This document shows, piece by piece, positions 1 through 20,096 of a stretch of 20,277 nucleotides of DNA. Numbering within the stretch: position 1 is the stretch's first letter; each line of letters begins with the position of its first letter. A program made the translations under genes and the position numbers. The stretch is from Planctomycetota bacterium (GTDB taxonomy: Bacteria; Planctomycetota; UBA11346): positions 1 to 20,277 of the forward strand of contig JAQIBG010000068.1 of NCBI GenBank assembly GCA_027859175.1, given 5' to 3'. The notes under the pieces are model-generated. The model did not search any database. It was not told the DNA's origin and saw nothing but the letters and a program-made list of their open reading frames with translations.

Positions 1-3000
1 GTTGAGGCTGACTAGCTGGCGCACCGCAACCTGCATCGGGTCGTCGTCGTCGCCCATTTCTTGGCGGCGCTCGAAGCCGGCGGTGATCGCATCCCAACGC
101 GCCTGCTTCTCGGCGTCCATGTGGCCCACCAGTTGGTAGAAGCGCAGCAGGTTGGCTTCGGCGGCGGAGGTCAGGGTCTGCGATTCCGAGCGGTAGTGGT
201 CGATGACCAGCTGTTCGAGCTCGTCTTCGTTCATGACCGCCACCACCTTCTCGGCGAGCTTGGACATGTTGCGGTACGAGCCTTGCAGCTTGAAGGCCGG
301 TTCGGTGCGGTCTTCATCTGACATCGACGCGGATTCGATGTAGAGCAGGTTAACCTTGAGTAGCACTTGCTGCACCCGGCGCAGGTGACGCAGCACCTGG
401 CAAATCTCATCGAGTTCAACCGCCGCGTAGGGGTGCTCGAGTTCGCTGCGCAGGCTGTCGTCGCCCTCGGCGATTTGGAGCAGACGGTAGAAGTCTTGCT
501 GACTGCGGCTGGCAACCGGGTTCAACACCGGGTTGACGGTCAGGCAGTTTTCGAGGTAGCTGAGCTCGAAGGCCTCGGCGGTGCCGCCGATGATGTCACC
601 CAGGTTGTAGGTGTCGGCGCGATTGGCGAGCATGTCGGGGATCTGGAACTTCTCGCCCGATTCGGTGTAGGGGTTGCCCGCCATCACCACCACAACCTTC
701 TTGCCGCGTAGGTCGTAGGTTTGGGTTTGGCCGCGCCACACGCCTTCGATGCGACGTTGACCGTCGCACAGCGAAATGAATTTCTGCAGCAACTCAGGAT
801 TGCAGTGCTGGATGTCATCCAGGTACAGCATCACATTGTTGCCCATCTCCAGCGCGAGGTTGAGCTTTTCGAGCTCTTGGCGCGCGGTGGCATTGGGGGC
901 CGAGGCGGGATCGATCGAGGTGGCCTCGTGGCCGATCGCCGGACCGTTGATCTTCATGAAGGTTAGGCCCAGCACCGAGGCGATGTATTCCATCAGGGTG
1001 GTTTTGCCGTAACCGGGGGGCGAGATCAGCAGCAGCAGGCCCATCAGGTCGGTGCGCTTAGTATCGCCAACCGCGCCCATCTGCTTGGCGAGGTTGTCGC
1101 CGATCATCGGCAGGTAGACCTCGTTGATCAGGCGGTTGCGAACAAAACTGGTGAGCACGCGCGGCTTGAATTCTCCGAGGCGCAGGCCGCTGCGTTCGCG
1201 GTCGATCAGGTTTTTGCGGAGATCCAGATAGGCCTGGTAGGCAGGGATGGTTTCGCGGTGATGGCGTTCGAGGCGCGGCAGGAATTCATCGATGCGCAGG
1301 TCGAGCTGCTTGTCAGCAATGCGTGGGTGATTGCCGAGGAGGCCCTTCACCGTGACCGCGGTGCGCGCGTGTACCACCTCGTGCTGCATGCTGTCTTTGG
1401 TGAGGATGGTGGCGACGGCTTCGTCGATCACGGGGAGGCTGCCTGGCTTTTCGCCGCGCGCGTAGCGCTCAAGCCAGGCTCGCACTAGGCGGCGCGTGGC
1501 GGCGCGGTCGTCGGTGAGCGCCCGCAGGTCGTCGTCGAAGGCGGTGCGCAGTTGCTTGAGGTCGAGGTGTTCAACGAAGCCATCAATCAAGGTGTCGGCT
1601 TCGCCTGAGCACACGAAGTGTTCGCCGTCGGCTCCGAGTTGATCGAGGGCATAGCGACCCGCCGCGGCGGCGGTGAGGTCTGGTAGGGTCAGGCCTAGGG
1701 CTTGAGCGCTGGCGGCGATGGGGGCTGCCAAGTCGGCGGCCAGGGCGTAGTGCTCGTCGGATAAGCCATAGGCGGCGCGCAGGCGCGCGAGCGAACGGCA
1801 GCGACGGGTTAGCGCGTCGCGCTCGCTGTCATCGATGCCAGTGTACCATAGCAGGGCTGCGGCGCGGGCGTCGGCCGGATGCCGCAATAGGCCAACCGAC
1901 TCGGTCATATGCAGGAGTTGTTCGAGGATTGCGGTAGCGTCTCCATCGTGCAAGCCGCGCTCATAGCCTTCTTCGTAGCGGCCCGAGGCATAGCCCCGCA
2001 CCATCTCGAGCAGGCCCTTGTCTTTCATCGCGGCTTCGCGCAGCTTGGCGATGCTTAGGCCGTCGCGTTCATTGTCGGCGGCATCCAGTATCGACCACGC
2101 CAAGTACTCACCACGGTACACCGCAGTGTTTTCGGACGGGAGCTCTTGGCTCCACAGGTGGCGCGTGGCCAAGAATGCTTCGTCGGTGACGGGCTCGAAG
2201 TAATCGGTGCCACTGAGGTGGAACACCGTGCCCTCATCACGCGGCAGCATGGTGAGCTCGAGGGCCTGACGATTGACGCTGAAGCGATGGCGGCCGAGCT
2301 TAATGGTGTCGCCTTCGAACAGTTCGCTTTGGTCGCGCAGGTGGCGCACCGCGTCTTCGCGCGCGGCCTTGAGCTGCGAGGCGCAGTCGTCGGCTTTGAC
2401 GGTGTCGCCGAGTTCAGTCAGATTTTTGATGATGCCCTTGAGCTTCATCACCATCGGGTCAGACGCGAGATAGGCGTTGAGCTCGTCGATCTCCTTGAAG
2501 CTCATCGAGCGCTTGCGAACGCTGCTGATGATGCGTTCGGCGCTGCGGCTCAACTGCTGGGTGTGGCGTTGACGTTCGTCGAGCAGTTGCTGCTTACGGC
2601 CCTGGAAGGCTTCGTAGATCTCTTCGCGCTTGTCGCCGAGTTGGGTTGCGAACTCGTCGAACTCAACGAACTTGGCCTCGAGTTCTTCCACCGACACCAT
2701 CAGCTTGGCGAGCAGGTCGTCGGTTTTCTCGGGGCTGTCGCACAGGCCGAGGTAGTTGCTGACGGTTTGCGACAGCAGGGTGAACTGGGCTGCAAACTCG
2801 GCGCGCCCTTCGCTGGCGCCGAGCTCTTGGCGCCGGCTGCCGAGCACCGCGCGCGCGCGGTTGAGCTGGCCATACACTTCCGAAATCGCTTCGATGATAT
2901 CGGTGCGTGCGGTGGCATCGGCGATGTCGAGGCCGTTGACGACCTCCATCAGCAGATCGAGCTGACTGGAGATGCTGTCGAGTTCGCCGCCGATGGTCTC

Positions 3001-4860
3001 GCCTTCGGTGGCGGTGTTAATGGTTTCTGCCGCTTCAAGCTGGCCGGCGATGTTGTTGGTGTAGGCGGCCAGCGCGTCTTCGTCTTGCAGACAGGTAACC
3101 GCGCCCTGGCTGAGCTGGTCTTGATTGCGGACGATCTCGTCTTCAAGCGCCTGCAGTGCGGCGTTATCAACGTAACGTAGGCCGCGGGCGGTGTCGACCC
3201 GGCCGCGGATGGCGCGCAGTTGATCGAGCGCGCCGACGTAATCTTCGATGACCGTCTGCTCGGCCAGGGTGATGTCGCGGAACAGCGCGTGGCATTCGTG
3301 TTCGAGGCCCTGCACTTGGCCGGCGGTTTGCGCCTGGATCTGCTGCACCTTCTCGAATTCATCGATCACGGTGTTGGCGGTGCGGCGGATTTCTTGCAGC
3401 TGGGCTTGCAGGCCAAAGGCCTCGTCGTGGCCGAGCCAGTGGTAGCTGTCAGAGGCGCGCGTGATCAGCTTGAGCAGGTCTTGGTAGACCACCGTGCTCG
3501 GCTTTTGGTTGGCAATCAGCCGGTTGACCTGCAGCAGGTCGCTAATGCCGCGTACCAGTTCGCGGTTGCCGATGGTGGCCAGGAAGCAGCTGTCGTCTTC
3601 AACTTCGCTGGCGAAATCTTCTGAGCAGAACGGGGTGGTCCACACCTGCATCGTGTGCAGGCGTTGCGGCTCAGGGTCGGCACGGAACACGATCAACTTG
3701 CCGTCGGGGAACAGGCAGTAGCCGTTGGCGACCTGGGGCTGCGCCACCTCGCGGGTGATCAGGTTGTATTGCAGGAAGATGTAGCGGCCGTCAACGCGGT
3801 GATGGTAGACATAGGCCACGTCTTCGCCGTTGGGGGCGCGGATCTTGCGAATGAACTCCATGTCCTCGGCCGGAATCGGGAACACTTTGTGAGTGCCGTC
3901 GGTGAGGTAGAAGCCGTTGGGGAAAATCAGACCGTGGCCTTCGGGCAACTGCTGGCAACTGTAGCCGAGCGAGTCGATGCGCGTGGCCTGTCGGGTCTGC
4001 TTATTGTAGACGATGTAGCGGTAGGCGGTTTCGCGGTACGGGCGAATCTTGAGGACGATCATCGTCTCGAGATTGGCGTACAAGATCTCAGCGTCGTCGA
4101 GGCCTTGGTTCTGTTCCTCAACGTCTTCGGCGTACACGCCGCTGCCGTCGTCGGTATTGTCTTCGACCTTGATCGTCAAATCGCCTTCGATGCATTCGAC
4201 GAAGATGGTATCGGCAACGTTGACGTGTGGGTGCGCGCCGAGCACGTGGTCTTCACGAGTGGTGCGGATCCACTCGAAATCAAACGAGGGTGGGTAGACG
4301 TGGTCGCGTTCGCCGCGGTTGTCGATGTAGGCGGCCACGCCGGTGGTGTCCAGGCCCCAGCGCAGCACCTTGATGTCAGACGCGCGTTCACCGGTTTGGA
4401 ACACCATCAGCAGGTGGGTGTCGGTGCGACGCAGCTGCATCAGGCGCGCGTCTTTGTAATATTGGAACAGCTCAGTGAAGTCTTTGCCGAAACGCGGGTC
4501 GTTCAGCAATGAGAAGGTGTCGTTGTTGAGGTGTTCGCCATCAAACGCGAGCTTGGCGAAGACGTCGCCAACCGAGGTCTCCTTTTTGAGACCCATGCGG
4601 ACATGGTAGCCGAGTAGCAATTGCTTGTCATTCAGGGAAACCACGTCGCGCGGGATGCAGTTGTTTTCGGTGCGCACCCGTTCGGTGCTGATCAGGGCAC
4701 TTTCAACCCCACCAAATAATTCTTGCCGACGGGTATTGAGCGAGCCAACGCGCTCGCCCAGGGTCGTGCCTTGATCCACCAAACGCTTGCGGATCACCTC
4801 ATAGGTTGAGGCCTCGATCTCACCGCCATCGCTTACTTCGGATGCTACTTCGTCTGCCAT
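1..4860 (-). CDS. Giant multidomain protein (>1620 aa; 3' end lies beyond window start) with an AAA+ ATPase module near the window-proximal part (Walker A ISPPGYGKTT, Walker B VMLYLDD); N-terminal ~1200 aa includes long coiled-coil region; resembles the large 'DUF3686/DNA-repair-ATPase'-type proteins
   Basis: ATG at 4858-4860 (minus strand) preceded by AAGG-type RBS (revcomp GGAACGCAGCAAGGCGAACCATG). Minus-strand frame stays open through all 1620 codons to position 1. I hand-translated the N-terminus (MADEVASEVSDGGEIEASTYEVIRKRLVDQGTTLGERVGS...) and the AAA region around nt 900-1260 (...TDLMGLLLLISPPGYGKTTLMEYIASVLGLTFMKINGP...NVMLYLDDIQHCNPELL...). Long + strand ORFs over this span (2146..3180, 3655..4512) have antisense-type composition. 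The ORF track presumably omits it because no stop codon is inside the window. Confidence 0.8.
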   Translation of the reverse strand, partial: MADEVASEVSDGGEIEASTYEVIRKRLVDQGTTLGERVGSLNTRRQELFGGVESALISTERVRTENNCIPRDVVSLNDKQLLLGYHVRMGLKKETSVGDVFAKLAFDGEHLNNDTFSLLNDPRFGKDFTELFQYYKDARLMQLRRTDTHLLMVFQTGERASDIKVLRWGLDTTGVAAYIDNRGERDHVYPPSFDFEWIRTTREDHVLGAHPHVNVADTIFVECIEGDLTIKVEDNTDDGSGVYAEDVEEQNQGLDDAEILYANLETMIVLKIRPYRETAYRYIVYNKQTRQATRIDSLGYSCQQLPEGHGLIFPNGFYLTDGTHKVFPIPAEDMEFIRKIRAPNGEDVAYVYHHRVDGRYIFLQYNLITREVAQPQVANGYCLFPDGKLIVFRADPEPQRLHTMQVWTTPFCSEDFASEVEDDSCFLATIGNRELVRGISDLLQVNRLIANQKPSTVVYQDLLKLITRASDSYHWLGHDEAFGLQAQLQEIRRTANTVIDEFEKVQQIQAQTAGQVQGLEHECHALFRDITLAEQTVIEDYVGALDQLRAIRGRVDTARGLRYVDNAALQALEDEIVRNQDQLSQGAVTCLQDEDALAAYTNNIAGQLEAAETINTATEGETIGGELDSISSQLDLLMEVVNGLDIADATARTDIIEAISEVYGQLNRARAVLGSRRQELGASEGRAEFAAQFTLLSQTVSNYLGLCDSPEKTDDLLAKLMVSVEELEAKFVEFDEFATQLGDKREEIYEAFQGRKQQLLDERQRHTQQLSRSAERIISSVRKRSMSFKEIDELNAYLASDPMVMKLKGIIKNLTELGDTVKADDCASQLKAAREDAVRHLRDQSELFEGDTIKLGRHRFSVNRQALELTMLPRDEGTVFHLSGTDYFEPVTDEAFLATRHLWSQELPSENTAVYRGEYLAWSILDAADNERDGLSIAKLREAAMKDKGLLEMVRGYASGRYEEGYERGLHDGDATAILEQLLHMTESVGLLRHPADARAAALLWYTGIDDSERDALTRRCRSLARLRAAYGLSDEHYALAADLAAPIAASAQALGLTLPDLTAAAAGRYALDQLGADGEHFVCSGEADTLIDGFVEHLDLKQLRTAFDDDLRALTDDRAATRRLVRAWLERYARGEKPGSLPVIDEAVATILTKDSMQHEVVHARTAVTVKGLLGNHPRIADKQLDLRIDEFLPRLERHHRETIPAYQAYLDLRKNLIDRERSGLRLGEFKPRVLTSFVRNRLINEVYLPMIGDNLAKQMGAVGDTKRTDLMGLLLLISPPGYGKTTLMEYIASVLGLTFMKINGPAIGHEATSIDPASAPNATARQELEKLNLALEMGNNVMLYLDDIQHCNPELLQKFISLCDGQRRIEGVWRGQTQTYDLRGKKVVVVMAGNPYTESGEKFQIPDMLANRADTYNLGDIIGGTAEAFELSYLENCLTVNPVLNPVASRSQQDFYRLLQIAEGDDSLRSELEHPYAAVELDEICQVLRHLRRVQQVLLKVNLLYIESASMSDEDRTEPAFKLQGSYRNMSKLAEKVVAVMNEDELEQLVIDHYRSESQTLTSAAEANLLRFYQLVGHMDAEKQARWDAITAGFERRQEMGDDDDPMQVAVRQLVSLN

Positions 4861-4898
4861 GGTTCGCCTTGCTGCGTTCCTGGTTCTTGGTGGTGCCT

Positions 4899-4994
4899 AG
4901 GTCCTAGGAGGGGCGCGTCGCGCCCCTAGTGGGCCGTAGGGGTCCCAGTCGAGGGCCTACCAGGGGCGCGACGCGCCCCTCCTACGGCCTAGGG
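4899..4994. repeat. REP-like palindromic doublet: two inverted copies of a ~40-bp element, each with a perfect 17-bp GGGGCGCG(T/A)CGCGCCCC hairpin core (4910-4926 and 4963-4979) flanked by GGGCCGTAGG / CCTACGGCC arms
   Basis: Direct reading: cctaggaggggcgcgtcgcgcccctagtgggccgtagg ... cctaccaggggcgcgacgcgcccctcctacggcctagg. It lies in the 141-bp spacer between the flotillin stop (5002) and the giant-gene start (4860). Confidence 0.6.
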
Positions 4995-5001
4995 CCTGTT
5001 A

Positions 5002-7062
5002 TTACTTACCGCCCGAAAGCCAGCCGGCGATTTCGTCGCCGAAGCCCAGTTCTTTGGCCTTGTCGAGCAGGGCCTGGACTTGCTTTGGATCCTTGCCCTT
5101 GGCCAGCTTCGAGAGCAGGCTGGTGGCGGCTAGGTTCTTCAGGTCGTCGGTGCCGAGCTTGCTGTTCGACAAGACTTCTTTGAGGTCTTGCGGCAGCGAG
5201 CGATCGCCATCGATGTATTCCTTGGCTGCGGTCTGCAGGGCGGTGGAACGATCCAGCGCACCGTCGATTGACTTGCCAACCGACACCGCCTTGACGAAGC
5301 GGTCGAAGAAGGCGCCGTCGCCGCCAACAATGTCGAAGCGGGCGCCCGACATGGCGCGGCCGAGGATATCGGCGTTGCGCTCGGCAATGGTGATGTTGGC
5401 TTGGATCTCGGCCTTGGCGATCTCGAGTTCTTTCTCGAGCTTGAGGCGGAACTCCTCGTGCTCGCGGGTCGACTCGTTGAGCAGCTTCATGGCTTCGGCC
5501 TTGTCGCCGATGCCCTTGGCCTCGGCCGCCATCTTGGCTTGCACCGCGCTGGCTTCGGCCGCGCCCTTGTCTTTGATCATCGAAGCTTCGGCTTCACCGC
5601 GGGCGGCAATCACGCCAACCTCGGCTTCGTCGACGCGCACCTTGGCCAAGCCCTGCTTCTCGTTGGCGAGGGCATCGGCTTCTTTGACCTTGGCCTGCGC
5701 GAGGCCGCTGGCGGCTTCGCGGGCCTGGACACCTTCGGCGCGACGGATGTCGGCGATGGCTTCTTTCTCGGCGGCCACTTGCTCGGCTTCGGCCAACACC
5801 AGCCTCTCTTTGGCAGCGAAACCGGCGGCCTGTTCGGCTGCTTCGGCCGCTTTGACTTCGCGCAACTTGGCGTCTTCGGCTTCTTGGCTGGCCTTGGTTA
5901 GCGCCACTTCCTTGTGTCGGTTGGCTTCCATGGTCGCGCGCAGGTCTTTGATCCGCTCTTCTTCTTGGGCCACGCTCTTGTCGACCGCAACGCGCTCGCG
6001 AACCACATCGGCGATGGCTTTCTTCTCGATCTCGAGGGCCTTTTCCTTTTCGATCCGGCTTAGTTCGGTGGCGCGTTCGCGGTTGATGACTTCCAGGTCG
6101 CGTTCTTTCTTGACCCGTTCCATTTCAACCTGCACCGAGCGTTGCCGGTTTTGGTTGGCTACTTCGATTTCGCGCTGGGCATTCTCGCGCTGGATGCCGA
6201 GTTCTTGTTCGGCTTGGATCTTGGCTTCTTCCGAGCGGCGATGCTCTTCGAATTGGACCTTCTGGATTTCGGCCGTCTCGCGGGCGCGAACCACTTCTAC
6301 GTCGCGCTGCTGAATCGAGATCGCTTCCTCTTCTTGCCGTTCAAGCGCCAGGATCGCCTCGCGGGCTTCGACGTCTTGTTTCTTGATGGTTTTTTGCGCG
6401 TCGCGCTGGATTTGATTGGCCTTGACCTGTTCGTCGGAGGTCAGCTCGATGATCTTCTTGCGGCCCTGCGCGTCGAGGATGTTGTCGGGGTCGAGGCTAT
6501 CGAGCGGGGTTTGCTCGAGGTAGTCGATCGCGGCGTCTTCGAGGGTATAACCGTTGAGGTCTTTGCCGATCACATCGATGATGGCTTCTTTGAAGCGCTG
6601 CCGCTCGTTATAGAGCTCGATGAAATCCATCTGCTTACCGACGGTTTTCAGCGCTTCGGAGAACTTGGCTTGGAACAGCGCTTCGAGCGTGCGGATGTCA
6701 GACGCACGGTCGACACCCACCGAGCTGGCAACGTTGAGTACGTCTTCGGTGGTTTTGTTGACGCGCACGAAGAGGGCCACCGTGATGTCGGCGCGGATAT
6801 TGTCCCGACAGATCAGGCCGTCTTTGCCGCGACGGTCAACGTCGATGGTTTTGACCGATATGTCCATGACCTCGGCGCGGTGGATGACTGGATAGACCGG
6901 ACAGCCGGTGAAGGTCACTGTCGGCGTTGCTCGCATTGTGTTGACAATGAGCGCCTTGCCCTGATCTACTTTGCGGTAGAAGGCTTTGAAAAAGGCCACT
7001 GCTGCGAACAGGAGAAAGAAGAGAGTGAAAGCAATAACCGCAATGGTTATGAGTATGCTCAT
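5002..7062 (-). CDS. yqiK: Flotillin / SPFH (band-7) domain protein, YqiK-like, 686 aa, with N-terminal TM helix, SPFH domain and a long Ala/Glu/Lys-rich coiled-coil C-terminal half
   Basis: Translation MSILITIAVIAFTLFFLLFAAVAFF... (TM), then SPFH-like segment (GKALIVNTM...VKTIDVDRRGKDGLICRDNIRADITVALFVRV...), then ~330 aa of E/A/K/R-rich coiled coil, matching the architecture of E. coli YqiK. AAGGA RBS 6 nt upstream (revcomp of 7063-7076). Start overlaps the upstream yqiJ-like stop by 4 nt (ATGA). Confidence 0.85.
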   Translation of the reverse strand: MSILITIAVIAFTLFFLLFAAVAFFKAFYRKVDQGKALIVNTMRATPTVTFTGCPVYPVIHRAEVMDISVKTIDVDRRGKDGLICRDNIRADITVALFVRVNKTTEDVLNVASSVGVDRASDIRTLEALFQAKFSEALKTVGKQMDFIELYNERQRFKEAIIDVIGKDLNGYTLEDAAIDYLEQTPLDSLDPDNILDAQGRKKIIELTSDEQVKANQIQRDAQKTIKKQDVEAREAILALERQEEEAISIQQRDVEVVRARETAEIQKVQFEEHRRSEEAKIQAEQELGIQRENAQREIEVANQNRQRSVQVEMERVKKERDLEVINRERATELSRIEKEKALEIEKKAIADVVRERVAVDKSVAQEEERIKDLRATMEANRHKEVALTKASQEAEDAKLREVKAAEAAEQAAGFAAKERLVLAEAEQVAAEKEAIADIRRAEGVQAREAASGLAQAKVKEADALANEKQGLAKVRVDEAEVGVIAARGEAEASMIKDKGAAEASAVQAKMAAEAKGIGDKAEAMKLLNESTREHEEFRLKLEKELEIAKAEIQANITIAERNADILGRAMSGARFDIVGGDGAFFDRFVKAVSVGKSIDGALDRSTALQTAAKEYIDGDRSLPQDLKEVLSNSKLGTDDLKNLAATSLLSKLAKGKDPKQVQALLDKAKELGFGDEIAGWLSGGK

Positions 7063-7910
7063 GGGGATCCTTTCGAGGCGTCGGGGGTGCCGGTCGAGTC
7101 TTTGTGTTGGTGAGTATGGGCGTCGATGCCAGCAGGGAGGCGTTCTTGTGCCCCTGGGGGCGGCATATTTGCGTCAACTGCGATGTCGGCGCTGATGACA
7201 AGCTTGTTTGGTCCGAGTGGCATGACTGCGTAGTGCTGCTTGGCTTCGTCATAATCGAGAAGGGTGACTTCGTCGCCGGTTGCAAGCCGGTTGGCGTCTT
7301 GGCACACGATGTTCAGCTGAAGTGAGGTGGTGCCGTCGTCTGTTGGTAATGAGGCAAGGCCGAATGTGCTGGTCACTTTGCTGGAGGTCACCGTTGCGGT
7401 ACGGCCGATAAGGTATTCCTGTCCATGCTGCGATACGGTGATGAAGGCAGGTTTCAGTGGCTTGACTGCAAGGGTGGTTAGCCAGACCGCAAACAGGAAG
7501 GTCGCAGCTAACATGCCGCCGCCATAGATCCATGCCCCAACGAGCTCGCGTGCCATGGGGGCGATGGTGGTTTCCGCGATCAGGCTGCTGATCCAGCCAA
7601 AGGCTGTGATGAAACTGACGACGATCGTGACGGGTACCGTGCCGATGGCGAGGGCGTCAAGCATGGAGGAGAGCAGGCCGCCGGAGGAGGCATCGGCACC
7701 GAGTTCCGCGTCTGCGTCTAGGTCCAGATCTGGGTCGACATCCATGTCAACGTCCACATCGACATCGGCATCAGGTCCGTCTGCAGTGAACATATCCAGG
7801 TCAAGGGCGCCGGCTATGATGAGCGACCAATACAGCATGCACACGGCCATTGGAACCGTCCAAATGGCCGTGGGGAATGATTCGATCACTGCGATAAGCT
7901 GGTCGAGCAT
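7059..7910 (-). CDS. yqiJ: NfeD/YqiJ-like inner-membrane protein (DUF1449-type membrane region + C-terminal OB-fold), 283 aa, carrying an unusual acidic (DV/DL)n low-complexity insert
   Basis: N-terminal hydrophobic helices (AIWTVPMAVCMLYWSLIIAGAL; LAIGTVPVTIVVSFITAFGWISSLI), C-terminal beta-rich segment resembling the NfeD OB-fold (LIGRTATVTSSKVTSTFGLASLPTDDGTTSLQLNIVCQDANRLATGDEVTLLDYD), and translational coupling (ATGA overlap) with the flotillin gene as in yqiJ-yqiK. Start codon choice is uncertain (weak RBS at 7910). Confidence 0.7.
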   Translation of the reverse strand: MLDQLIAVIESFPTAIWTVPMAVCMLYWSLIIAGALDLDMFTADGPDADVDVDVDMDVDPDLDLDADAELGADASSGGLLSSMLDALAIGTVPVTIVVSFITAFGWISSLIAETTIAPMARELVGAWIYGGGMLAATFLFAVWLTTLAVKPLKPAFITVSQHGQEYLIGRTATVTSSKVTSTFGLASLPTDDGTTSLQLNIVCQDANRLATGDEVTLLDYDEAKQHYAVMPLGPNKLVISADIAVDANMPPPGAQERLPAGIDAHTHQHKDSTGTPDASKGSP

Positions 7911-8113: not shown

Positions 8114-8953
8114 ATGTTCCGCGCCATCGCTCGCTGGTTCCGTTCCCTCGGTCACTTCATGTCTGGCCGGGTTGATTCCTCGCGTCGTGGGCTCGATACT
8201 GACCCACATGCGATTCGCTCCAAGTACGACGAGGTGCTGCGCGAGAAAACCGCCAGCATCCAGCAGTATAAGCAGGCCGTGGCCGGCTTGATCGCACAGC
8301 AAGAGCAGAAGATGGCCAAAGCCAAGGCCTTGATGGAAGAGGCCCAGCGCCTTGAGTCGCTCAAGGCCGGCGCCCTGGCCAAGGCCCAGAGCACGGTGGC
8401 AGCGCTCCAGGCCAGCGGTGCAGCCAAGGAGGCCATCCACAGCAATGACGACTACCAGCAGTGCCTGTCGGCCTTCAATGACTTCAAGGGCACGCTGAGC
8501 GAGAAGGAAGCCCGGATCGGTGAGCTTGAAGCCGATGTGTCGGAATACGGCAAGCGCATCACCGACCACCATCGCCAGCTCAAGGAGTTGGTGGCCGACA
8601 TTGAGAAGATCAAGGCTGAGCGGGCCGACGCGGTGGCGGAGGTGATCTCGGCCAAGCAAGAGAAGGAACTCAACGACGCGCTGTCTGGCCTGAACACCGA
8701 GAACAGTGCCGACGACAAGCTCGCCGAGTTGCGCAACCTGCGCCAGGAGCTCAAGGCCGAGGCCAAGGTCTCCAAGGAGCTGTCGGGTTCTGACGCCAAG
8801 TCACGCGAGGCAGAATTCCTCGAATTTGCTAAGAAAACTCAGGGTCAAGACGAGTTCGATCAGTTGATCGGCCTCGCTGGTCAGGCCGACGCCCCGGCCG
8901 CCGACAGCCCTGCTGCCGATCGGCCCGCGGCCGAGGGTAAGTTGCCGGAGTGA
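8114..8953 (+). CDS. PspA/IM30 (Vipp1/LiaH) family protein, 279 aa - bacterial ESCRT-III superfamily coiled-coil membrane-remodelling protein
   Basis: N-terminal amphipathic start MFRAIARWFRSLG (cf. PspA MGIFSRFADIV). DP motif (GLDTDPHAIRSKYDEVL, cf. PspA AEDPQKL). Coiled-coil body. Segment ISAKQEKELNDALSGLNTENSADDKLAELRN aligns well with Vipp1 ARAKAAKANAELQQTLGGLGTSSATSAFERMENK. Start at 8114 is preferred over the ORF-track ATG at 8063 because the protein then begins with the family-typical helix. Confidence 0.75.
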   Translation: MFRAIARWFRSLGHFMSGRVDSSRRGLDTDPHAIRSKYDEVLREKTASIQQYKQAVAGLIAQQEQKMAKAKALMEEAQRLESLKAGALAKAQSTVAALQASGAAKEAIHSNDDYQQCLSAFNDFKGTLSEKEARIGELEADVSEYGKRITDHHRQLKELVADIEKIKAERADAVAEVISAKQEKELNDALSGLNTENSADDKLAELRNLRQELKAEAKVSKELSGSDAKSREAEFLEFAKKTQGQDEFDQLIGLAGQADAPAADSPAADRPAAEGKLPE

Positions 8954-9125
8954 GGGTTCCTAGTTCCTGGTTCCTGGTTCCTGGTGCGCGCTTCGCGCGT
9001 TGGGTGCCGGCAGTAAGCAGCGAGCGGCGGCGTTTGCTCCGATTTGCTCTGATCCGTCGGGCGCGTCTGGTCTCCGACGCGCCGCAGGCGCGTACCAGGA
9101 ACCAGGAACCAGGAACCAGGAACCC
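8954..9125. repeat. MITE-like element, family A, copy 1 (172 bp): ~46-bp imperfect terminal inverted repeats built from (GGTTCCT)4 heptads plus GGTGCGCGCTTCGCGCG, flanking a ~80-bp core
   Basis: Left end gggttcctagttcctggttcctggttcctggtgcgcgcttcgcgcg; right end cgcgccgcaggcgcgtaccaggaaccaggaaccaggaaccaggaaccc. Begins immediately after the pspA-like TGA (8951-8953) and ends 21 nt before the AAA gene ATG. A second copy is at 20097-20237. Confidence 0.7.
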
Positions 9126-9146
9126 TCCCCGCCTCCGGACCGCGGC

Positions 9147-10928
9147 ATGACCGTCCCACCCTTCCTCAGCGACATTGGCCGTCTGTTCAACAGCGGTGAG
9201 GCGCGGGTGGCGGTGCTGACAGGCAATATCCACGATCTGTTTCCGGCGCCCGGTGGTGCTTGGCAGCCCTTGCCCGAGGTGTTGGCCGGGCATTGGCAGG
9301 TGCCGGGCCGCATCGTGCTGACCTATGAGATCAATGGGCCGATCCGGTTTCACCGCCCGCAAGACCGCCAACTGGTCAAAGACGCCTGGCTGCGCTGGCG
9401 CCATGGTCGCGATTCTGGCGACCTAACCCTGGCCAGCCTAGCAGCTAGCGGCGCGGCTCGCGACGAGTTGCTGGCCCATTCGCGCAGTTTCGATGAGCAG
9501 ATCCTGGCTGCGGTGGGCCGCCCCACGGTGGCGCTCGAATTGCTGCGCCAGTGCTGCCTGTGCTCGCGCGCGCGCGACAGCAAGGGTGCGGCCTTCCTTG
9601 AGCCCGACCTGGCGCTGATCATTGAGGGTGCCGACCTGATCCTGCCCGAGGCCCCGGTAACCGGCTTGGCCGATGCCGATCGCCAACGGCTCCACATTGC
9701 GCTCGATTGGTTTGCAGACCCAGGCTTTGCGGCCGGCGCCGATGTGGTGGCCTTGTTGACCGAGGCCGCAGCTGGCCTGAATGCGCGCCTGCTGCGTTTG
9801 CCCGAGGTGGTGAAGATATCGGTAGATGAGCCCGATCGCGATGTGCGGCGAGCCTTCTTGGCGGCGCAGAGCGGCGAGCGTTGGTGCCCCACTGACAGCG
9901 AGTTGGACACCTTGGCCGACGGCACCGCTGGCCTGGGTCTGCAGGCCTTGCGTCAGTTGGCGATGGCCGCTGAGCATGCCGGGCAGGCGCCCGACGAAGC
10001 CGCCGTGGTGGCGCGGGTTGAGCGCCACATTCAGGCCCAATTGGGTGAGGATGTGGTGTCGTTTAAGCGGCCGGGGCATGGTTTGCGCCAGGTGGTAGGT
10101 GCGCGCGCCCTGACCGGGTTTTTGCGTGACGAGCTTGCGCCGCGGATTCGCGCTGGTGGCGCCGGGGCCTTGAGTGGTTGCGCGGTGGCCGGCCCGATCG
10201 GTGCCGGCAAGACCTTCATTTTTGAGGCCCTGGCTGGCGAATTAGGCTTGCCGGTGCTCGAGCTTGGTAGCATTCGTTCGCAGTGGTTTGGGCAGACCGA
10301 TGTCATCATCGAACGCTTGCGCCGCGTGCTCACCAGTCTCGGCCGCGTGGTGATCATTGTCGACGAGGCCGATACCCAGTTTGGCCGCCTGAGCGATCAA
10401 AGCCATGAAACCGAGCGCCGCCTGACCGGCAAGATCCAGGCGATGATGTCTGACCCGGCCCTGCTCGGCAAGGTGTTCTGGTTGCTGATGACGGCGCGAA
10501 TCGAGCGCCTGTCGCCCGACCTGCGCCGGCCCGGCCGCGTGGGTGACCTGATTGTGCCAGTGCTCGACCCCGAGCCTGATGATCGGGCCGACTTCGTGGC
10601 CTGGGCCCTGAAGCCGAGCCTGGGCTCTGAGATCGACCCCGCCGTGCTTGAGCGGATCACAGCGGCTACGTCAGGCTACAGCGCGGCGGCCTATGCGGCC
10701 TTGCGGCGCGAGTTGGCCGCCTTGGGGCGTGTTGATGCCGACCGGGTGCAGGCGCTGGTCGATGACTTGCTGCCGGCCGATATCGGCGCAGCACGGCGCT
10801 ATCAGACGCTCCAGGCCCTGGTCAATTGCACCCGCCGCAGCCTGCTGCCCGATCCTACGGTCAGCGAGGCCACACGCGAGGCGTGGCACAACGAGTTGCG
10901 CAGTCTCGAAGCGCGCGGCCTTGCTTAG
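9147..10928 (+). CDS. Classical-clade AAA ATPase (FtsH/CDC48/Vps4-type AAA module) with a ~380-aa N-terminal domain of unknown function, 593 aa
   Basis: Walker A GPIGAGKT, Walker B VVIIVDEAD, second region of homology MTARIERLSPDLRRPGRVGDLIVPVLDP (cf. TNRPDxLDPALLRPGRFD). True start taken as ATG 9147 (MTVPPFLSDIGRLF...). The ORF-track start at 9000 reads through the MITE (QEPGTRNQEP) and is rejected. Confidence 0.8.
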   Translation: MTVPPFLSDIGRLFNSGEARVAVLTGNIHDLFPAPGGAWQPLPEVLAGHWQVPGRIVLTYEINGPIRFHRPQDRQLVKDAWLRWRHGRDSGDLTLASLAASGAARDELLAHSRSFDEQILAAVGRPTVALELLRQCCLCSRARDSKGAAFLEPDLALIIEGADLILPEAPVTGLADADRQRLHIALDWFADPGFAAGADVVALLTEAAAGLNARLLRLPEVVKISVDEPDRDVRRAFLAAQSGERWCPTDSELDTLADGTAGLGLQALRQLAMAAEHAGQAPDEAAVVARVERHIQAQLGEDVVSFKRPGHGLRQVVGARALTGFLRDELAPRIRAGGAGALSGCAVAGPIGAGKTFIFEALAGELGLPVLELGSIRSQWFGQTDVIIERLRRVLTSLGRVVIIVDEADTQFGRLSDQSHETERRLTGKIQAMMSDPALLGKVFWLLMTARIERLSPDLRRPGRVGDLIVPVLDPEPDDRADFVAWALKPSLGSEIDPAVLERITAATSGYSAAAYAALRRELAALGRVDADRVQALVDDLLPADIGAARRYQTLQALVNCTRRSLLPDPTVSEATREAWHNELRSLEARGLA

Positions 10929-11064
10929 CAAATCTGTCACCCAGATGGTGGCGTGGTCAAACGACTGGTCGAGACCGCCGGTAACCGGTGGATGCGCCAC
11001 GTGATGGCGTGGATGCATGGCGCTGCTTGCCGGCGCCTTGCGTGAACCAACCCTGGGCCCAGTG

Positions 11065-12237
11065 ATGAATCAAAGCAGCGCATCTGAGAGCGGCAGCCAG
11101 CCCTTGCCCGACCTCCCGCCACGTGCACGCATCGTGCAGGTGGTGCGTGATTGGATTGAGAGCGGCGAGCTCCAACCCGGCGCGCGCTTGCCGGCCGAGC
11201 AGACTTTGGCCGCGAGCCTGTCGGTGGCGCGCGGCACGGTGCGTCAGGCCTTGGCTGAGTTGGTTGATCTTGGTCTGCTCGAGAAGCAGTTGCACCGCGG
11301 CCATGTGGTGAGCGCGCAGGTAACGACTGGTTCGAGCTTGATGGCGCGCACCTGCTTGTTGCTGGGCGAACTGGTTGAGCAGCGTGAACCGGTGCCTGGT
11401 TTCGATGAGGCGGTGGTTAGCGGTGCGGCAGCGGCTTTAGCTGGGGCGGTGTTCAATCGTCTGAGCTTGCATCCCAATATGCTCGATGTGGATGAGGGTC
11501 GTCGTATTGCGATGGAGCGTCCAGCGGGGGTTATTGCCTGTCACTATGCCAGCTCAACTGAGCGTGGCCGGGCCTTTGTCGACGTCTTGGCGGCGGCGGG
11601 CGTGCCCTGTGTGGTCAATGGCGGTAATGCTTGGTGTGAAGGCTACGATCGCGCCGTGAGCGATCAGGAGCAGGGCGGCTATCGTCTGACGCGTTTGCTG
11701 ATTGAGCGTGGTCGCCGGCACTTCGTATTGCTGTCGACCGCTGCCGATGAGCCCTACTGGTTGATTGAGCGCGAGCGTGGAATCCGCCGCGCTTTGGACG
11801 AGGCCGGCTTGCCGCCGATCACCGTAGTGCCGATGCAGGTGGCGCCGCGCAGCGACACCGAAGATCTTGCTAATCTCGATCAGCGCACCCGCACCTATGC
11901 CGGTCATCTGGTTGAGCACTGTCAGGGCAAAGACGCCGCCGATGCGGTGATGGTGCTCTCAGACAGTGACTGCGCTCCAGTGACTGCCGGCCTTCGTCTA
12001 TGCGGTCTCGACCCAGCCTCGCAGGTCGACGTGGTTGGCTACGACCATTACTGGAATAACGACGCCATGTGGGAGCGCCGCCACGAATCGGTGCCGCCTC
12101 TGGCCACCGTCGACAAGCGCAACACCGCGGTTGGTCGCGCCCTGGTTGAACTCCTGATGAACCGCGTCGAGGGCGAAGTCAGCGACGACACGCCCCGCGT
12201 CCGCTGGATCGAACCCGAACTCGTCCAACTCCGTTAG
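11065..12237 (+). CDS. Hybrid transcriptional regulator: GntR-type winged-HTH N-terminus fused to a LacI/PBP1-like periplasmic-binding-protein-fold sugar-binding domain (~390 aa)
   Basis: HTH segment RLPAEQTLAASLSVARGTVRQALAELVDLGLLEK is typical of GntR. Remainder has PBP-fold hallmarks (alternating hydrophobic beta-strands / helices, VVGYDHY.., ATVDKRNTAVGRALVELL). Alternative in-frame start ATG 11017. Convergent with the GH36 gene. Confidence 0.6.
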   Translation: MNQSSASESGSQPLPDLPPRARIVQVVRDWIESGELQPGARLPAEQTLAASLSVARGTVRQALAELVDLGLLEKQLHRGHVVSAQVTTGSSLMARTCLLLGELVEQREPVPGFDEAVVSGAAAALAGAVFNRLSLHPNMLDVDEGRRIAMERPAGVIACHYASSTERGRAFVDVLAAAGVPCVVNGGNAWCEGYDRAVSDQEQGGYRLTRLLIERGRRHFVLLSTAADEPYWLIERERGIRRALDEAGLPPITVVPMQVAPRSDTEDLANLDQRTRTYAGHLVEHCQGKDAADAVMVLSDSDCAPVTAGLRLCGLDPASQVDVVGYDHYWNNDAMWERRHESVPPLATVDKRNTAVGRALVELLMNRVEGEVSDDTPRVRWIEPELVQLR

Positions 12238-12253: not shown

Positions 12254-12500
12254 CTAGAATTAGCAGGAAGAATTAGCAGGAGGGAGTTGAGGGAGTCGAG
12301 GTCCGAGTGAGGGTTGGCATTTTAGGTTTTTGCGTTGTGTTGCGTGTTTCTTGAGCGCGGGCCTGACTCCGCTTGCAGGGGTGCATGGCCTGAACGCCTG
12401 GTGCGCCACCCTTCCCAGCCCCTTCTGAACTCATTCGGACCTCAACTCCCTCGACTCCCTCCTGCTAATCTAATTCTTCCTGCTAATCTAATTCTAATCA
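12254..12500. repeat. MITE-like element, family B, copy 1 (~247 bp): ~60-70-bp imperfect terminal inverted repeats (…attagcaggagggagttgagggagtcgaggtccgagtgaggg / cattcggacctcaactccctcgactccctcctgctaatctaatt…) containing internal AGCAGGA(A/G)G sub-repeats, around a ~115-bp core
   Basis: Read directly: left arm 12254-12313, right arm 12429-12497. The right arm overlaps the last codons/stop of the GH36 gene. A homologous copy with a related core lies at 15383-15572 (+16893-16906). Confidence 0.7.
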
Positions 12501-14450
12501 AGAATAGCGGAAGAAGCGGTAGTCGGCGGGTTTGTCGATGGTGATGGTGAGGGTGCCGGCTTGGTTGAGGGGGTGCTCGGTGGTGGTGTCGGTCAGCAGG
12601 TTGGTCAGGCGGATGCTGGTGTTAGCGAGATGCGGCAGGTGGACGGTGACCTGGGGCTCGGTGTTGGTGCGTTCGCGGAAGACGGTCAGGTAGCCGGTGC
12701 CGTCGTTGAGTTGGCAGTGGAATCCGGTGTGGCTGGTATTGTTGGGACTCGCGCCGATGCCGCTGACGTCGCCGCGGTGGATTGCGCTGCGGTGGGCGCG
12801 GTACACGGTCAGGAGCTCGCGCAACTCCTTGCGTTGATCGGGTGCAAGGAATTGTAGTTGTTGGAATAAGATCGGCGTGGCCATGAGCGCGGTGGCGAAG
12901 CAGTAGCCGATTGGGTGCAGATGGGCGTCTGATAGATCAGCCCTGGTTTTGCGTGGGTTTTGAATCGTGATCTGAACGTCTTGCAGGCGCTGGTAGCGGC
13001 TCAGTTGCCACGCGTCGCGCAGCATGGTGTGCGGACGATAGACCGTGCTTTCCGGCATCATTGGTTTGCGATTGGCGAGATACAGTGAGCCGTACTCGCG
13101 CATGCAGAAATACCCAACGCGTGGTGGCAGTTCGGTGACGTCAAAATTAATCCGCACCTGATGGCCGGTGTCGCGCACAAAGCTTCGTACTTTGCGTTGG
13201 AAGGCGTGAAACGCGGCGTGGTCGCGCAGGCACATGAAGTCGAGCTTGTAGTAGGCAAAGCCGCCCTGGTCGCGATTCCATTGCAGATCATCGAGCGGAA
13301 TGGGTGTGCCGGCAGCCCATAGGCCGAGAGTGACGCCGTGTTTCGCAGCGTGGGCGCGGATGGCGCCCCAGCCATCGGGATAGACCTCGGGATGCGGGCG
13401 CCAGCCGTTGTCCTCGGTGGGCATGGGTGTGGTGCTGGCGAGATCAAGCTGCCAGCCATCGTCGATTTGAACAACGTCGACGCCGATTTCCGCGGCCAGA
13501 TCGATCTCGCGTAGCACGTTGTCTTCACGTGCGGCATCGCGCGCATCGCGACTGTGCGCGGTGGAGCCCCAGGTGTTGCACAGCACGTAGCAATCGCGCG
13601 CGGGGTCATGCGGGTAGCGCGCGGCAATGAATGCTCGTACCGCGCGTGCGCGTGCGTGCTCGGTGTCGCTGGCATAACAAATAGTCCAGTGGGCCCAGGC
13701 CGGGTAACTCCCTTCGGTGCCGATTTCCTTGGACCACAGTCCCCAGCCGCTGGAACGCAGGCCGTCACTACCGAGGATGAAGGCGCCGGTGTCGTGGCCG
13801 CTTTGGTTGACGCATTTGTTGGACTCTTTGACCAAGCACAGGCCTTCGCCGGCCAATTCAATCGCACACAGGGAGGCCCAGTCACAAACCCCGTCGGCGG
13901 GGATGGCTTCCTCACGCAGAATCGGAGTCTCGAGTTGGTTGCGTTGTTGGGTTTCGTTATAGTACCCGGCGGCAATGGCGGTGGCGCCAAGCGTGGTGCA
14001 GCCGAGATGCTCGCAGCTGACCGCCTGTTCGCTCGCGAGGGGGCTGAAGCCCGGCAAGGCCTGCACGCTCAAGGCGGTGCGGATGCCGGGGGCGCCCGGT
14101 AGGGCCCAGATCTCGACCTGGAGTTCGAGCCCCGCGGCGGGGTAGGCAATGCCGGCCAGCACTTGCACGTGCTCGCTTACGAAGCCGTCGTCGTTGTTAC
14201 GCTGTATAGCGACGCGGCGCAGTTCGGCGCCATCGTGCGGTGCGCCACCGGGCAGACGCCAGTCGGCGCTGTTGCTCGCCCTGGTGATGAGCTCGCGCCC
14301 GCCATGGCGCTTGAGGGAGCAGGTAGCGAAGCCGTTCGCGGTCCAACGCCACTGGCGGACCAGCTGGCCGGTGTCGACAGTGAGGGTGGTGCCGTCCCAG
14401 CTGGCGCTGGCTTCGGCGTGGTGGCAGATCTCGTTGATGGCGTTGGTCAT
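12498..14450 (-). CDS. Glycoside hydrolase, alpha-galactosidase-like (GH36 / clan GH-D), 650 aa
   Basis: Catalytic-region signatures VVQIDDGWQ and YYKLDFM (cf. GH36/GH27 DDGW.. and K.D nucleophile motif). AAGGA RBS 8 nt upstream of ATG (revcomp of 14451-14470). No obvious signal peptide. Confidence 0.7.
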   Translation of the reverse strand: MTNAINEICHHAEASASWDGTTLTVDTGQLVRQWRWTANGFATCSLKRHGGRELITRASNSADWRLPGGAPHDGAELRRVAIQRNNDDGFVSEHVQVLAGIAYPAAGLELQVEIWALPGAPGIRTALSVQALPGFSPLASEQAVSCEHLGCTTLGATAIAAGYYNETQQRNQLETPILREEAIPADGVCDWASLCAIELAGEGLCLVKESNKCVNQSGHDTGAFILGSDGLRSSGWGLWSKEIGTEGSYPAWAHWTICYASDTEHARARAVRAFIAARYPHDPARDCYVLCNTWGSTAHSRDARDAAREDNVLREIDLAAEIGVDVVQIDDGWQLDLASTTPMPTEDNGWRPHPEVYPDGWGAIRAHAAKHGVTLGLWAAGTPIPLDDLQWNRDQGGFAYYKLDFMCLRDHAAFHAFQRKVRSFVRDTGHQVRINFDVTELPPRVGYFCMREYGSLYLANRKPMMPESTVYRPHTMLRDAWQLSRYQRLQDVQITIQNPRKTRADLSDAHLHPIGYCFATALMATPILFQQLQFLAPDQRKELRELLTVYRAHRSAIHRGDVSGIGASPNNTSHTGFHCQLNDGTGYLTVFRERTNTEPQVTVHLPHLANTSIRLTNLLTDTTTEHPLNQAGTLTITIDKPADYRFFRYS

Positions 14451-14684
14451 GAGGCTGTCCTTGTCGATTTATGTCTCAATTGTTGCCACATTTTTAGCCG
14501 AATACAGGTTTGGTGTGGTATCTATTGCCGTTTTGTGATATCCATTGTCGTGAGCGACTGGGAGCGCACCTTCTCAATCCGTCGGCCGTTGCGAGCGCTG
14601 CCGCGTCCGAGGCGGGCGGCATGCTTCCACGTTAATGGGGCGTACCAATCGGTTGGGCGGCGGCGTCGTGATCGCGACGCTGCG

Positions 14685-15377
14685 GTGCTGCAATACTCCG
14701 TGTCAGGCTGTGGCTTGTTTCGGCGTGGCCGGCGTGAATGGCGGGTTGAGGCTGGTCAGGCCTTCCTGTGCCGCGTTTCCGACCCAGAGGTGGTCTATGG
14801 TCACCCGGGTGACGGTGTGCCGTGGCGCTTCATGTTTATCTCGTTTTTCGGTGCGGCGGCCGCGGTGGACGAATTGGTCGAGCGCGACGGGTCGGTGCGC
14901 ACGCTTGGCGACCAGCACCCCGCCGTCCAATTGCTGGCAAGTTTGCAGCGCGGGCCAGTGGTGACCAGCGTGAGCGCTGCTGAGGGCGCCATGTTGGTGG
15001 CGGGTTTGCTCGGCCACCTCGCGGGCTCTGGCCTTGAAGCAAGCGCTGAACGCCTGTTGCAGGCCGCTCGCGATGCGGTGGCCGCGCATGTCCCAGGCAG
15101 TCTCACGGTGGCCGATCTCGCAGCCAAACTCACGGTCAGTCGCGAGCACCTGACCCGCGTATTCACCGCCGAACTTGGCATCGGACCGGGCGCGTGGATG
15201 AACCAAGAGCAAATCCGCCACGCCTGCCAACTGCTCCGCGCCAGCAATGACGACCTCACCACCATCGCCCACGCCAGCGGCTTTCCTTCAGCAAGCCGCC
15301 TCTGCAAAGTCTTCCGCCGCACTCTCGGCTGCACCCCCGGTGATTACCGCAAATCCCGCTATCTGCCTGTGGTTTGA
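14685..15377 (+). CDS. AraC/XylS-family transcriptional regulator (C-terminal double HTH), divergent from the GH36 gene; start codon uncertain (GTG 14685 chosen; region 14451-14684 of the same frame has non-protein-like composition)
   Basis: C-terminal AraC-type HTH ...SLTVADLAAKLTVSREHLTRVFTAELGIGPGAWMNQEQIRHACQLLRASNDDLTTIAHASGFPSASRLCKVFRRTLGCTPGDYRK. Divergent arrangement with the alpha-galactosidase, analogous to melR-melA. Confidence 0.6.
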   Translation: MLQYSVSGCGLFRRGRREWRVEAGQAFLCRVSDPEVVYGHPGDGVPWRFMFISFFGAAAAVDELVERDGSVRTLGDQHPAVQLLASLQRGPVVTSVSAAEGAMLVAGLLGHLAGSGLEASAERLLQAARDAVAAHVPGSLTVADLAAKLTVSREHLTRVFTAELGIGPGAWMNQEQIRHACQLLRASNDDLTTIAHASGFPSASRLCKVFRRTLGCTPGDYRKSRYLPVV

Positions 15378-15382
15378 TTCCG

Positions 15383-15572
15383 ATTAGCAGGAGGGAGTTG
15401 GGGGAGTTGAGGTCCGAGTGAGGGGGGAAGGGTTTGCGGTTCTGCCCTTGTCTGAGCTGGCCACGCGCGCGGACGCGGCTCCGTTTTCAGCGCTGCATGC
15501 CTTGAGCGGCGGAGCAGCCACCATTTCAATACTCATTCGGACCTCAACTCCCTCAACTCCCTTGTAAGTTCG
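15383..15572. repeat. MITE-like element, family B, copy 2 (left arm + core + truncated right arm); its right TIR is interrupted by the IS110-family element and resumes at 16893-16906 (cctgctaactcttc)
   Basis: Left arm attagcaggagggagttgggggagttgaggtccgagtgagggg. Core is related to copy 1 (gcgcggacgcggctccgttttcagcgctgcatgccttgagcg vs gcgcgggcctgactccgcttgcaggggtgcatggcctgaacg). Right arm actcattcggacctcaactccctcaactccct stops at 15572, exactly where copy 1 continues with cctgctaat. Confidence 0.7.
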
Positions 15573-16707
<1,135 letters not shown>

Positions 16708-20063: not shown

Positions 20064-20096
20064 TCAAGAGGGAGTCCCGGAGTGTTGTGGCTGGGC

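Follow-up and report, generated by a model that had tools for sequence, protein, structure and literature searches.

What does a protein of more than 1,620 residues, with one AAA+ module, do behind a flotillin gene? The question is raised by one end of contig JAQIBG010000068.1 (assembly GCA_027859175.1, a Planctomycetota bacterium), whose 20,277 nucleotides are the window analysed here. Our analysis showed that the giant ATPase gene at this end is almost certainly an ordinary, intact member of the widespread DUF3686 family, lying in a YqiJ-flotillin-ATPase operon. Neither the gene nor the system is of a new kind, as such an operon has already been described computationally (PMC11237479). For the protein itself we favour, at a probability of about 50%, a role as an AAA+ remodeller of the flotillin/YqiJ scaffold, or of the clients of that scaffold, in membrane stress.

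The giant ATPase gene and its operon

The genes for a YqiJ-like protein, a flotillin and the giant ATPase (the triad below) follow one another in this order, all on the minus strand, as in an operon. The features of this part of the window are as follows.

1..4860, minus strand: giant ATPase open reading frame, residues 1-1620 of about 1,765; stop-free, with the C-terminus beyond the window
4861..5001, minus strand: flotillin-to-ATPase spacer, 141 nucleotides, with two inverted palindromes at 4896-4940 and 4952-4990 (inverted repeats I1-I3)
5002..7062, minus strand: flotillin / YqiK-type SPFH protein of 686 residues, with an N-terminal transmembrane helix, an SPFH domain, a long coiled coil and a subfamily-specific C-terminal region of about 125 residues, assigned by homology
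7059..7910, minus strand: YqiJ/YuaF (NfeD-like) membrane protein of 283 residues, assigned by PF21001 (YqiJ_N) and a match to E. coli YqiJ

The ATPase frame begins with an ATG at 4860 (MADEVASEV...), runs through 1,620 codons with zero stops and is still open at base 1. It is absent from the program-made list of open reading frames because the frame runs off the window. Databases already list this partial protein, identical at 1,620/1,620 residues, from a Planctomycetota metagenome-assembled genome (P0001), under the name 'DNA repair ATPase [Planctomycetota bacterium]'. Among full-length relatives the nearest (P0002; 1,765 residues) is 73% identical to the window ATPase, and its alignment indicates that about 145 C-terminal residues are missing here. 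The gene is thus cut by the window, as the initial annotation had stated. That annotation had also raised the possibility of a pseudogene; the 1,620 codons contain no stop, and the nucleotide-binding motifs are intact. No transmembrane segment was predicted in the window ATPase, and the giant ATPase is predicted to be a soluble protein.

We then examined the operon in 83 fetched loci, 76 of which extend 2.3 kb or more beyond the ATPase gene on its upstream side. A flotillin gene was found directly upstream on the same strand in 72/76 loci, its SPFH part being 54-88% identical. The distance from the flotillin stop to the ATPase start had a median of 30 nucleotides, and a 4-bp overlap was found in 15 of the 76 measured spacings. 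Clustering of the open reading frames from the 83 loci recovered the flotillin in 77 and the YqiJ-like protein in 71. When loci were picked through the flotillin, a DUF3686/DUF7902/AAA gene lay downstream in 3/3 informative cases. The link to the flotillin, which had been proposed from the arrangement in the window, is therefore upheld by adjacency across related genomes, and a functional link between ATPase and flotillin is strongly supported by this synteny. In the window genome the two genes are presumably co-expressed.

The exceptions to the 72/76 are two Sorangium loci and two loci with displaced genes. In the Sorangium loci (L003 and L015) no flotillin or YqiJ gene was found near the giant ATPase, and these ATPase copies are probably paralogues in very large genomes.

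In one metagenome contig from the European Nucleotide Archive (L085), several transposase genes and a group II intron reverse transcriptase interrupt the flotillin-ATPase operon. This contig has a truncated flotillin gene, with the rest of the ATPase gene about 6 kb further downstream.

The flotillin and the YqiJ-like protein

The flotillin gene product matched human Flotillin-1 structures in a phmmer search of the PDB (E 1.3e-7, residues 35-349) and E. coli YqiK with 28% identity (E 2e-37, residues 8-472). Its homologues carry the Band_7 domain (PF01145) and are named flotillin or YqiK. Pfam hmmscan with the full-length window flotillin returned no family even at E≤10, and this miss may be due to the bias or speed filters of HMMER reacting to the long Glu/Ala/Lys coiled coil. 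The empty Pfam result is a pitfall for annotation.

One transmembrane helix was found in the flotillin, at residues 1-30, with basic residues right after it. By the positive-inside rule, the bulk of the protein would therefore be cytoplasmic. The C-terminal region (residues 561-686; 5002-5379, minus strand) is conserved in the ATPase-linked flotillins, as seen by tblastn in most loci, and these C-terminal ~125 residues gave no alignment with E. coli YqiK. The region is a candidate docking site for the ATPase.

The YqiJ-like protein scored 23.2 bits against PF21001 (cut-off 23) and matched E. coli YqiJ with an E of 1e-4. It has about three hydrophobic segments, and we verified a 4-bp overlap of the stop of its gene with the flotillin start. 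Between hydrophobic stretches 1 and 2 lies a strongly acidic, Asp-rich low-complexity segment, DGPDADVDVDVDMDVDPDLDLDADAELGADA (residues 45-70; 7701-7778, minus strand).

Domain architecture of the giant ATPase

Two AlphaFold2 models were built from 42-sequence alignments, one of residues 1-720 (predicted local distance difference test score, pLDDT, 86.5) and one of residues 701-1620 (pLDDT 86.7). Together with Pfam and Foldseek, they divide the protein as follows.

3439..4761, minus strand: DUF3686 domain, comprising an N-terminal helix and a beta-rich domain (residues 55-408) modelled as a beta-propeller fold (PF12458, AlphaFold2 model, Foldseek)
2323..3585, minus strand: helical-bundle / coiled-coil region, residues 426-846 (AlphaFold2 models)
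1141..2322, minus strand: middle region, residues 847-1240, a small beta unit (about residues 852-890) followed by a mostly helical domain (AlphaFold2 model of 701-1620)
601..1053, minus strand: AAA+ alpha/beta core, residues 1270-1420 (Pfam, AlphaFold2 model, Foldseek)
1..600, minus strand: AAA+ lid and C-terminal helical region, residues 1421-1620, cut at the window end (DSSP of the AlphaFold2 model, invariant columns)

The N-terminal region had been described as having no motif that could be named. Instead, it was found to be DUF3686 (PF12458), which covers residues 34-474 with 602.6 bits (cut-off 25) and an E of 4.8e-181, and aligns over profile positions 2-448 of 448. The beta-rich domain has about 28 strands in the model of residues 1-720. 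The top Foldseek matches of the DUF3686 region were beta-propellers, namely Elp1, Sec12, Ycf48, the clathrin terminal domain and PON1, with E values from 1e-6 to 1e-3, and the N-terminal domain is accordingly modelled as a beta-propeller.

A helical or coiled-coil segment of about 300 residues had also been noted. The helical region is real, and its true length is greater, from about residue 426 to 846. Within it Pfam identified DUF7902 (PF25472) at residues 595-679 (2824-3078), with 90.7 bits against a cut-off of 26. The middle region, residues 847-1240, had no Pfam, NCBIfam or PDB sequence match.

The AAA+ module

The motifs of the AAA+ module were located as follows.

997-1023, minus strand: Walker A SPPGYGKTT, residues 1280-1288, coordinates verified
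805-834, minus strand: Walker B VMLYLDDIQH, residues 1343-1352, coordinates verified
706-759, minus strand: pre-sensor-1 beta-hairpin, residues 1370-1383, ahead of the sensor-1 strand in the AlphaFold2 model
670-696, minus strand: sensor-1 VVVVMAGNP, in which MAGNP is invariant and its N1396 closes the sensor-1 strand
613-639, minus strand: candidate Arg finger in PDMLANRAD, the invariant R1414 standing just before the last core strand

Pfam detected one AAA+ module, with AAA_5 (35.4 bits) and AAA (PF00004; 30.6 bits, cut-off 21.2) at residues 1276-1401. This range and the modelled core at about 1270-1420 agree with the earlier observation of a single module set more than 1,200 residues from the N-terminus. 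PDB sequence matches to Rix7 and p97 were confined to the P-loop stretch. When the model of residues 701-1620 was searched with Foldseek, all matches were AAA+ ATPases, over about 250-350 alignment columns; the query ranges were unreported, and the result is consistent with the AAA+ module. The probability given for the AAA+ fold was about 1.0, with RuvB, NorQ, CbbQ, ClpX and Lon, and also MCM and dynein, among the matches.

The window ATPase has the alpha/beta core with a lid, a polar sensor-1 residue and an Arg finger position, as expected of the AAA+ fold. SPPGYGKTT conforms to the GxxGxGK[ST] Walker A pattern of the AAA+ superfamily and was found in 83/83 loci, and both hhhhDDIQH and PDMLANRAD are invariant or nearly so in the 83 loci and alignment A1. 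The Walker B motif departs from the superfamily pattern: in place of hhhhDE with its catalytic Glu, the window ATPase has LYLDDIQH, and all variants tallied in the 83 loci and a 12-sequence alignment are Asp-Asp, not Asp-Glu. R1414 is a candidate Arg finger, its role being given by position only. A further invariant motif, QGSYRNM (259-291), is a candidate sensor-2, and the remaining C-terminal tail is visible in the locus of the closest relative (L001).

The modelled hairpin and the structural matches to RuvB, MoxR, ClpX and Lon favour the pre-sensor-1-hairpin superclade of AAA+ proteins over classical AAA. The likeness to RuvB also bears on the database name. NCBI and Pfam sources use 'DNA repair ATPase' or 'ATPase involved in DNA repair' for such proteins, and if this were right, the enzyme would act in DNA repair and its flotillin neighbour would be incidental. 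The name and the weak similarity of the AAA+ core to RuvB are in line with such a role. However, the NCBIfam RuvB models, with cut-offs of 282 and 299 bits, scored only 21 and 19.6 bits in a match of about 45 residues confined to the P-loop segment; no DNA-binding, nuclease or helicase-accessory domain was found in the protein; its conserved neighbours are membrane proteins, not repair genes; and we found no paper supporting the name. We therefore rejected membership of RuvB or of a DNA-repair family, and a DNA repair function is extremely improbable. The database name is probably wrong, and it hides the family from membrane biologists.

Distribution of the family

More than 3,800 homologues of the giant ATPase were found at E≤1e-10, and the full-length ones listed mostly have about 1,730-1,950 residues. 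An exhaustive search with the DUF3686 region alone gave 739 clusters at 50% identity; the domain is N-terminal in nearly all of them, and the complete members have about 1,590-2,040 residues. The N-terminal position and the length range therefore indicate one fixed architecture. In the 79 complete loci of our sample, the median ATPase length was 1,755 residues. The layout of the window protein, with DUF7902 and one AAA+ module set some 1,270 residues in, is the same in the listed homologues. The architecture had been considered unusual in the initial annotation; it is instead the fixed layout of a family with relatives encoded in at least 594 species-representative genomes. These belong to Planctomycetota, Myxococcota, Actinomycetota (Streptomyces, Nonomuraea, Amycolatopsis), Gammaproteobacteria (Pseudomonas, marine groups), Bacteroidota, Acidobacteriota, Lentisphaeria and others.

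Biological-conflict systems commonly contain large NTPases whose sensor domains are beta-propellers or repeats. The giant ATPase could be the NTPase of an anti-phage or other conflict system, with the beta-propeller as sensor and a membrane effector. The patchy phyletic distribution of the family and the presence of the operon on some megaplasmids agree with this. Giant ATPase genes were found in 13 'plasmid' records, which are mostly megaplasmids, chromids or mislabelled chromosomes. Against such a role, no phage homologues of the giant ATPase were found, and members from different phyla are 51-73% identical along their full length of more than 1,600 residues, unlike fast-evolving defence genes. 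The neighbours are membrane-stress genes, not defence islands. A PADLOC search returned only IetA for the ATPase (E 0.0047, 29 residues at the P-loop) and nothing for its two neighbours, and we rejected a known PADLOC anti-phage system on this result. We consider a conflict role very unlikely.

Proposed role of the giant ATPase

The role of bacterial flotillins and the control of their assembly are unsettled, and in a 2026 survey of P. aeruginosa, deletions of SPFH genes had almost no phenotype (PMC13086221). A soluble ATPase of about 1,750 residues tied to one flotillin subfamily is the most obvious unexplored handle on this problem. We infer its proposed role as a remodeller from its almost constant association with a single flotillin subfamily and with a YqiJ-like protein, and from the recurrent PspA and lipid/polyamine genes, which include a phospholipase D gene downstream of the triad in L086.

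In the mechanism that we propose, the AAA+ modules of several giant ATPase molecules would join into a ring, as is general among AAA+ proteins. The beta-propeller and the helical arms would bind the flotillin assembly from the cytoplasmic side, with the C-terminal ~125 residues of the flotillin as the possible docking site. ATP would then drive the assembly, disassembly or reshaping of this scaffold, or the extraction or processing of clients held there, and this remodelling would be part of a membrane-stress or membrane-repair response. A narrower form of the proposal, which we put forward tentatively, is a dedicated ATP-driven assembly or uncoating machine for bacterial flotillin cages, in which the propeller would grip the C-terminal region of the flotillin and the AAA+ ring would remodel the scaffold. 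If true, this would provide a bacterial counterpart, in logic and not by homology, of Vps4/ESCRT-III or NSF/SNARE, and would give bacterial flotillins a defined energy-dependent cycle in hundreds of species.

Several points weigh against a remodelling role. Both the ATPase-flotillin interaction and the ATPase activity are predicted. The Glu-to-Asp change in Walker B is family-wide and may mean slow hydrolysis or a nucleotide-dependent switch. No solved structure in the PDB is related by sequence beyond the P-loop stretch, and the mechanism is anchored by neither a structure nor a characterised homologue. As the Sorangium loci show, a giant ATPase gene, or at least a paralogous copy, can be maintained without a flotillin. 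In the window, the 141-nucleotide spacer contains a very stable hairpin, and the co-transcription of the two genes across it is presumed.

The genes linked to the triad bear on a different reading, in which the flotillin/YqiJ pair is a membrane-proximal platform. The ATPase would there unfold, extract or assemble substrates other than the flotillin, for example damaged membrane proteins or PspA/ESCRT-III-like polymers. In several lineages, the triad has genes of the PspA family linked to it. In gammaproteobacterial loci, DUF2170 and a bona fide PspA were found upstream of it. On pQBR103 of P. fluorescens SBW25 (L089; NC_009444.1, 85-98 kb), an environmental megaplasmid that is well studied, the triad comes directly after a PspA/polyamine block encoding PspA, a rhomboid protease, DUF2491, DUF350, DUF1190 and glutathionylspermidine synthase. 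The window itself has a weakly PspA-like gene divergent next door. Such a platform would resemble the HflK/C-FtsH pairing of SPFH and AAA proteins, minus the protease domain, and beta-propellers are generic platforms for binding peptides and proteins. PMC11237479 likewise suggests the assembly of membrane-linked complexes. However, PspA is present in only about 9 of the 83 loci versus the flotillin in 77, no protease or other effector domain was detected in the ATPase, and the flotillin subfamily is tightly conserved, which points to its direct co-evolution with the ATPase. We regard a platform acting on other substrates as the main alternative, though a rather doubtful one.

The value of the remodeller proposal lies in a well-defined experimental target, for which Myxococcus, Streptomyces, P. 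fluorescens SBW25 with pQBR103 and Proteus mirabilis are tractable hosts. In P. mirabilis H63 the triad lies in a 4-Mb record filed as a plasmid (L090).

The spacer and other intergenic repeats

The two palindromes of the flotillin-to-ATPase spacer are imperfect, about 40 nucleotides each, and inverse copies of each other. Their core, GGGGCGCGWCGCGCCCC, occurs within the window only at these two sites, with 0.03 occurrences expected by chance. The spacer RNA is predicted to fold into one long hairpin (-89.8 kcal/mol, z -8.1). Neither a T-tail terminator nor a sigma-70-like promoter was found in 4861-5001. Speculatively, the hairpin could lower read-through, so that less ATPase than scaffold would be made.

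The palindromes had been called a doublet of repetitive extragenic palindromic (REP) sequences. The pair is present as described, and the REP label could not be verified: the pair is single in the 20-kb window, and no copies were found in the 83 related loci or in metagenome contigs of the Joint Genome Institute (JGI). At the corresponding site, the closest relative carries another stem-loop, which is smaller.

Another intergenic element was found at 8952-9127 and 20093-20242, with a partial copy at 4876-4890. Its arms are heptamer arrays, (GGTTCCT)n-GCGCGC ... GCGCGC-(AGGAACC)n, about 95 nucleotides apart, and its 15-mer has 9 matches where chance would give 0.06. One of the copies separates the PspA-like gene from a second AAA gene. 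A second inverted-repeat family, with arms ATTAGCAGGAGGGAGTTGAGGGAGTCGAGGTCCGAGTGAGGG about 120 nucleotides apart, has two copies (12272-12469 and 15382-15562). They flank a 2.9-kb segment with a TIM-barrel-like gene and an AraC regulator, and the segment adjoins an IS110/IS116 transposase gene (IS110 family, 15706-16707, plus strand). These could be elements like miniature inverted-repeat transposable elements. As these two further families each occur twice in the window, palindromic intergenic elements are common in the window genome.

Other genes in the window

Divergent from the triad is a coiled-coil gene (8114-8953, plus strand) whose product has weak, in-register similarity to PspA/IM30. 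Its match to PF04012 is weak, with an E of 0.078 and 13 bits where the cut-off is 33.9, but spans profile positions 29-209. BLASTP against true PspA gave an E of 0.25 and hhalign a probability of 35%; the L001 orthologue matched PF04012 with an E of 0.0015. The next gene (9147-10928, plus strand) encodes a 593-residue classical Cdc48/VAT-like AAA ATPase (E 1e-21 to VAT), with an AAA domain in the C-terminal half only. The listed start of this frame, a TTG at 9000, is probably wrong, and the ATG at 9147 matches the length of the L001 orthologue. The PspA-like and Cdc48-like pair beside the triad is kept only in this closest relative. It resembles the pairing of 'PspA + AAA+ with inactive N-terminal copy' in PMC11237479.

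The remaining annotated genes are unrelated to the triad.

11017-12237: GntR/LacI-type regulator
12498-14450, minus strand: 650-residue protein with weak TIM-barrel similarity
14163-15377 and 18475-19290: two AraC regulators
16907-18379, minus strand: sulfatase
19315-20013, minus strand: pirin

Comparison with known systems

Flotillin-associated giant ATPases had been taken to be unstudied. This is correct in that we found no experimental work on them; it is not correct for computational work, since an operon of YqiJ/YuaF, Band-7/flotillin and a 'beta-propeller + coiled-coil + AAA+ ATPase' was described by comparative genomics in PMC11237479 (mSystems 2024; preprint 2020). According to that study, the operon is at times joined to CesT/Tir-PspA and phospholipase D, and abbreviated versions are widely distributed. 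The authors proposed a role like that of a chaperone in building membrane-linked complexes and gave no experimental function. Their example is the ANH61663.1 neighbourhood of Dokdonia donghaensis, with the gene string in the supplement. In our literature search, no paper was found that links DUF3686, PF12458 or 'DNA repair ATPase' with flotillin. The initial annotation had also allowed that the protein might be a known, well-characterised enzyme; no characterised homologue was found, nor a solved structure related by sequence outside the P-loop stretch.

The window operon has the same three genes as that of PMC11237479, with the same order, orientation and ATPase domain layout, the last confirmed by Pfam and modelling. 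In other loci, too, the triad is variably linked to PspA, CesT/Tir-like DUF2170 and phospholipase D. The window triad differs in that neither DUF2170 nor a clear PspA precedes it, and weakly PspA-like and Cdc48-like AAA genes lie divergently upstream.

E. coli YqiJ-YqiK are encoded by homologous genes in the same order (YqiK E 2e-37, YqiJ E 1e-4), but there is no ATPase gene downstream of yqiJK. YqiK is also more distant, with 28% identity to the window flotillin versus 54-88% among the ATPase-linked flotillins, and the C-terminal ~125 residues are unaligned. Together with B. subtilis YuaF and its flotillin (PMC11237479), the E. coli pair represents the abbreviated flotillin operon. Human flotillin is a dome-shaped 44-mer (PMC13000311).

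MoxR-type ATPases such as NorQ and CbbQ share features with the window ATPase: AAA_5 is its best Pfam AAA match, the top structural matches include NorQ and CbbQ, and some JGI members of the family are named 'MoxR-like ATPase'. However, MoxR proteins have about 300 residues and VWA-domain partners, versus more than 1,620 residues here, and the structural matches are weak (E 1e-4 to 1e-3). Membership of the MoxR family was rejected on size and because neither the window nor the conserved neighbour clusters contained a VWA gene.

The pairing of HflK/C with FtsH is an established association of SPFH and AAA proteins. It serves as our working analogy, an SPFH scaffold paired with an AAA+ ATPase at the membrane, and this precedent is also mentioned in PMC13086221. 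FtsH differs in being a membrane-anchored AAA protease of the classical clade, whereas the window ATPase is predicted to be soluble, has no protease domain, and has a modelled pre-sensor-1 hairpin, a fold nearest RuvB/MoxR and a putative beta-propeller. Homology between them is limited to the AAA+ core.

With Vps4/CdvC and ESCRT-III the window system would share its logic, in which a soluble AAA+ ring recycles a membrane-associated scaffold, and PspA genes of the ESCRT-III family are linked to the triad in some lineages. Unlike Vps4, the window ATPase has no MIT domain, probably belongs to another AAA+ clade and is about four times larger, and its constant partner is flotillin, not an ESCRT-III protein. 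By analogy, the proposed remodeller may be likened to Vps4/ESCRT-III for its logic and to HflK/C-FtsH for the pairing of its components, with homology not implied.

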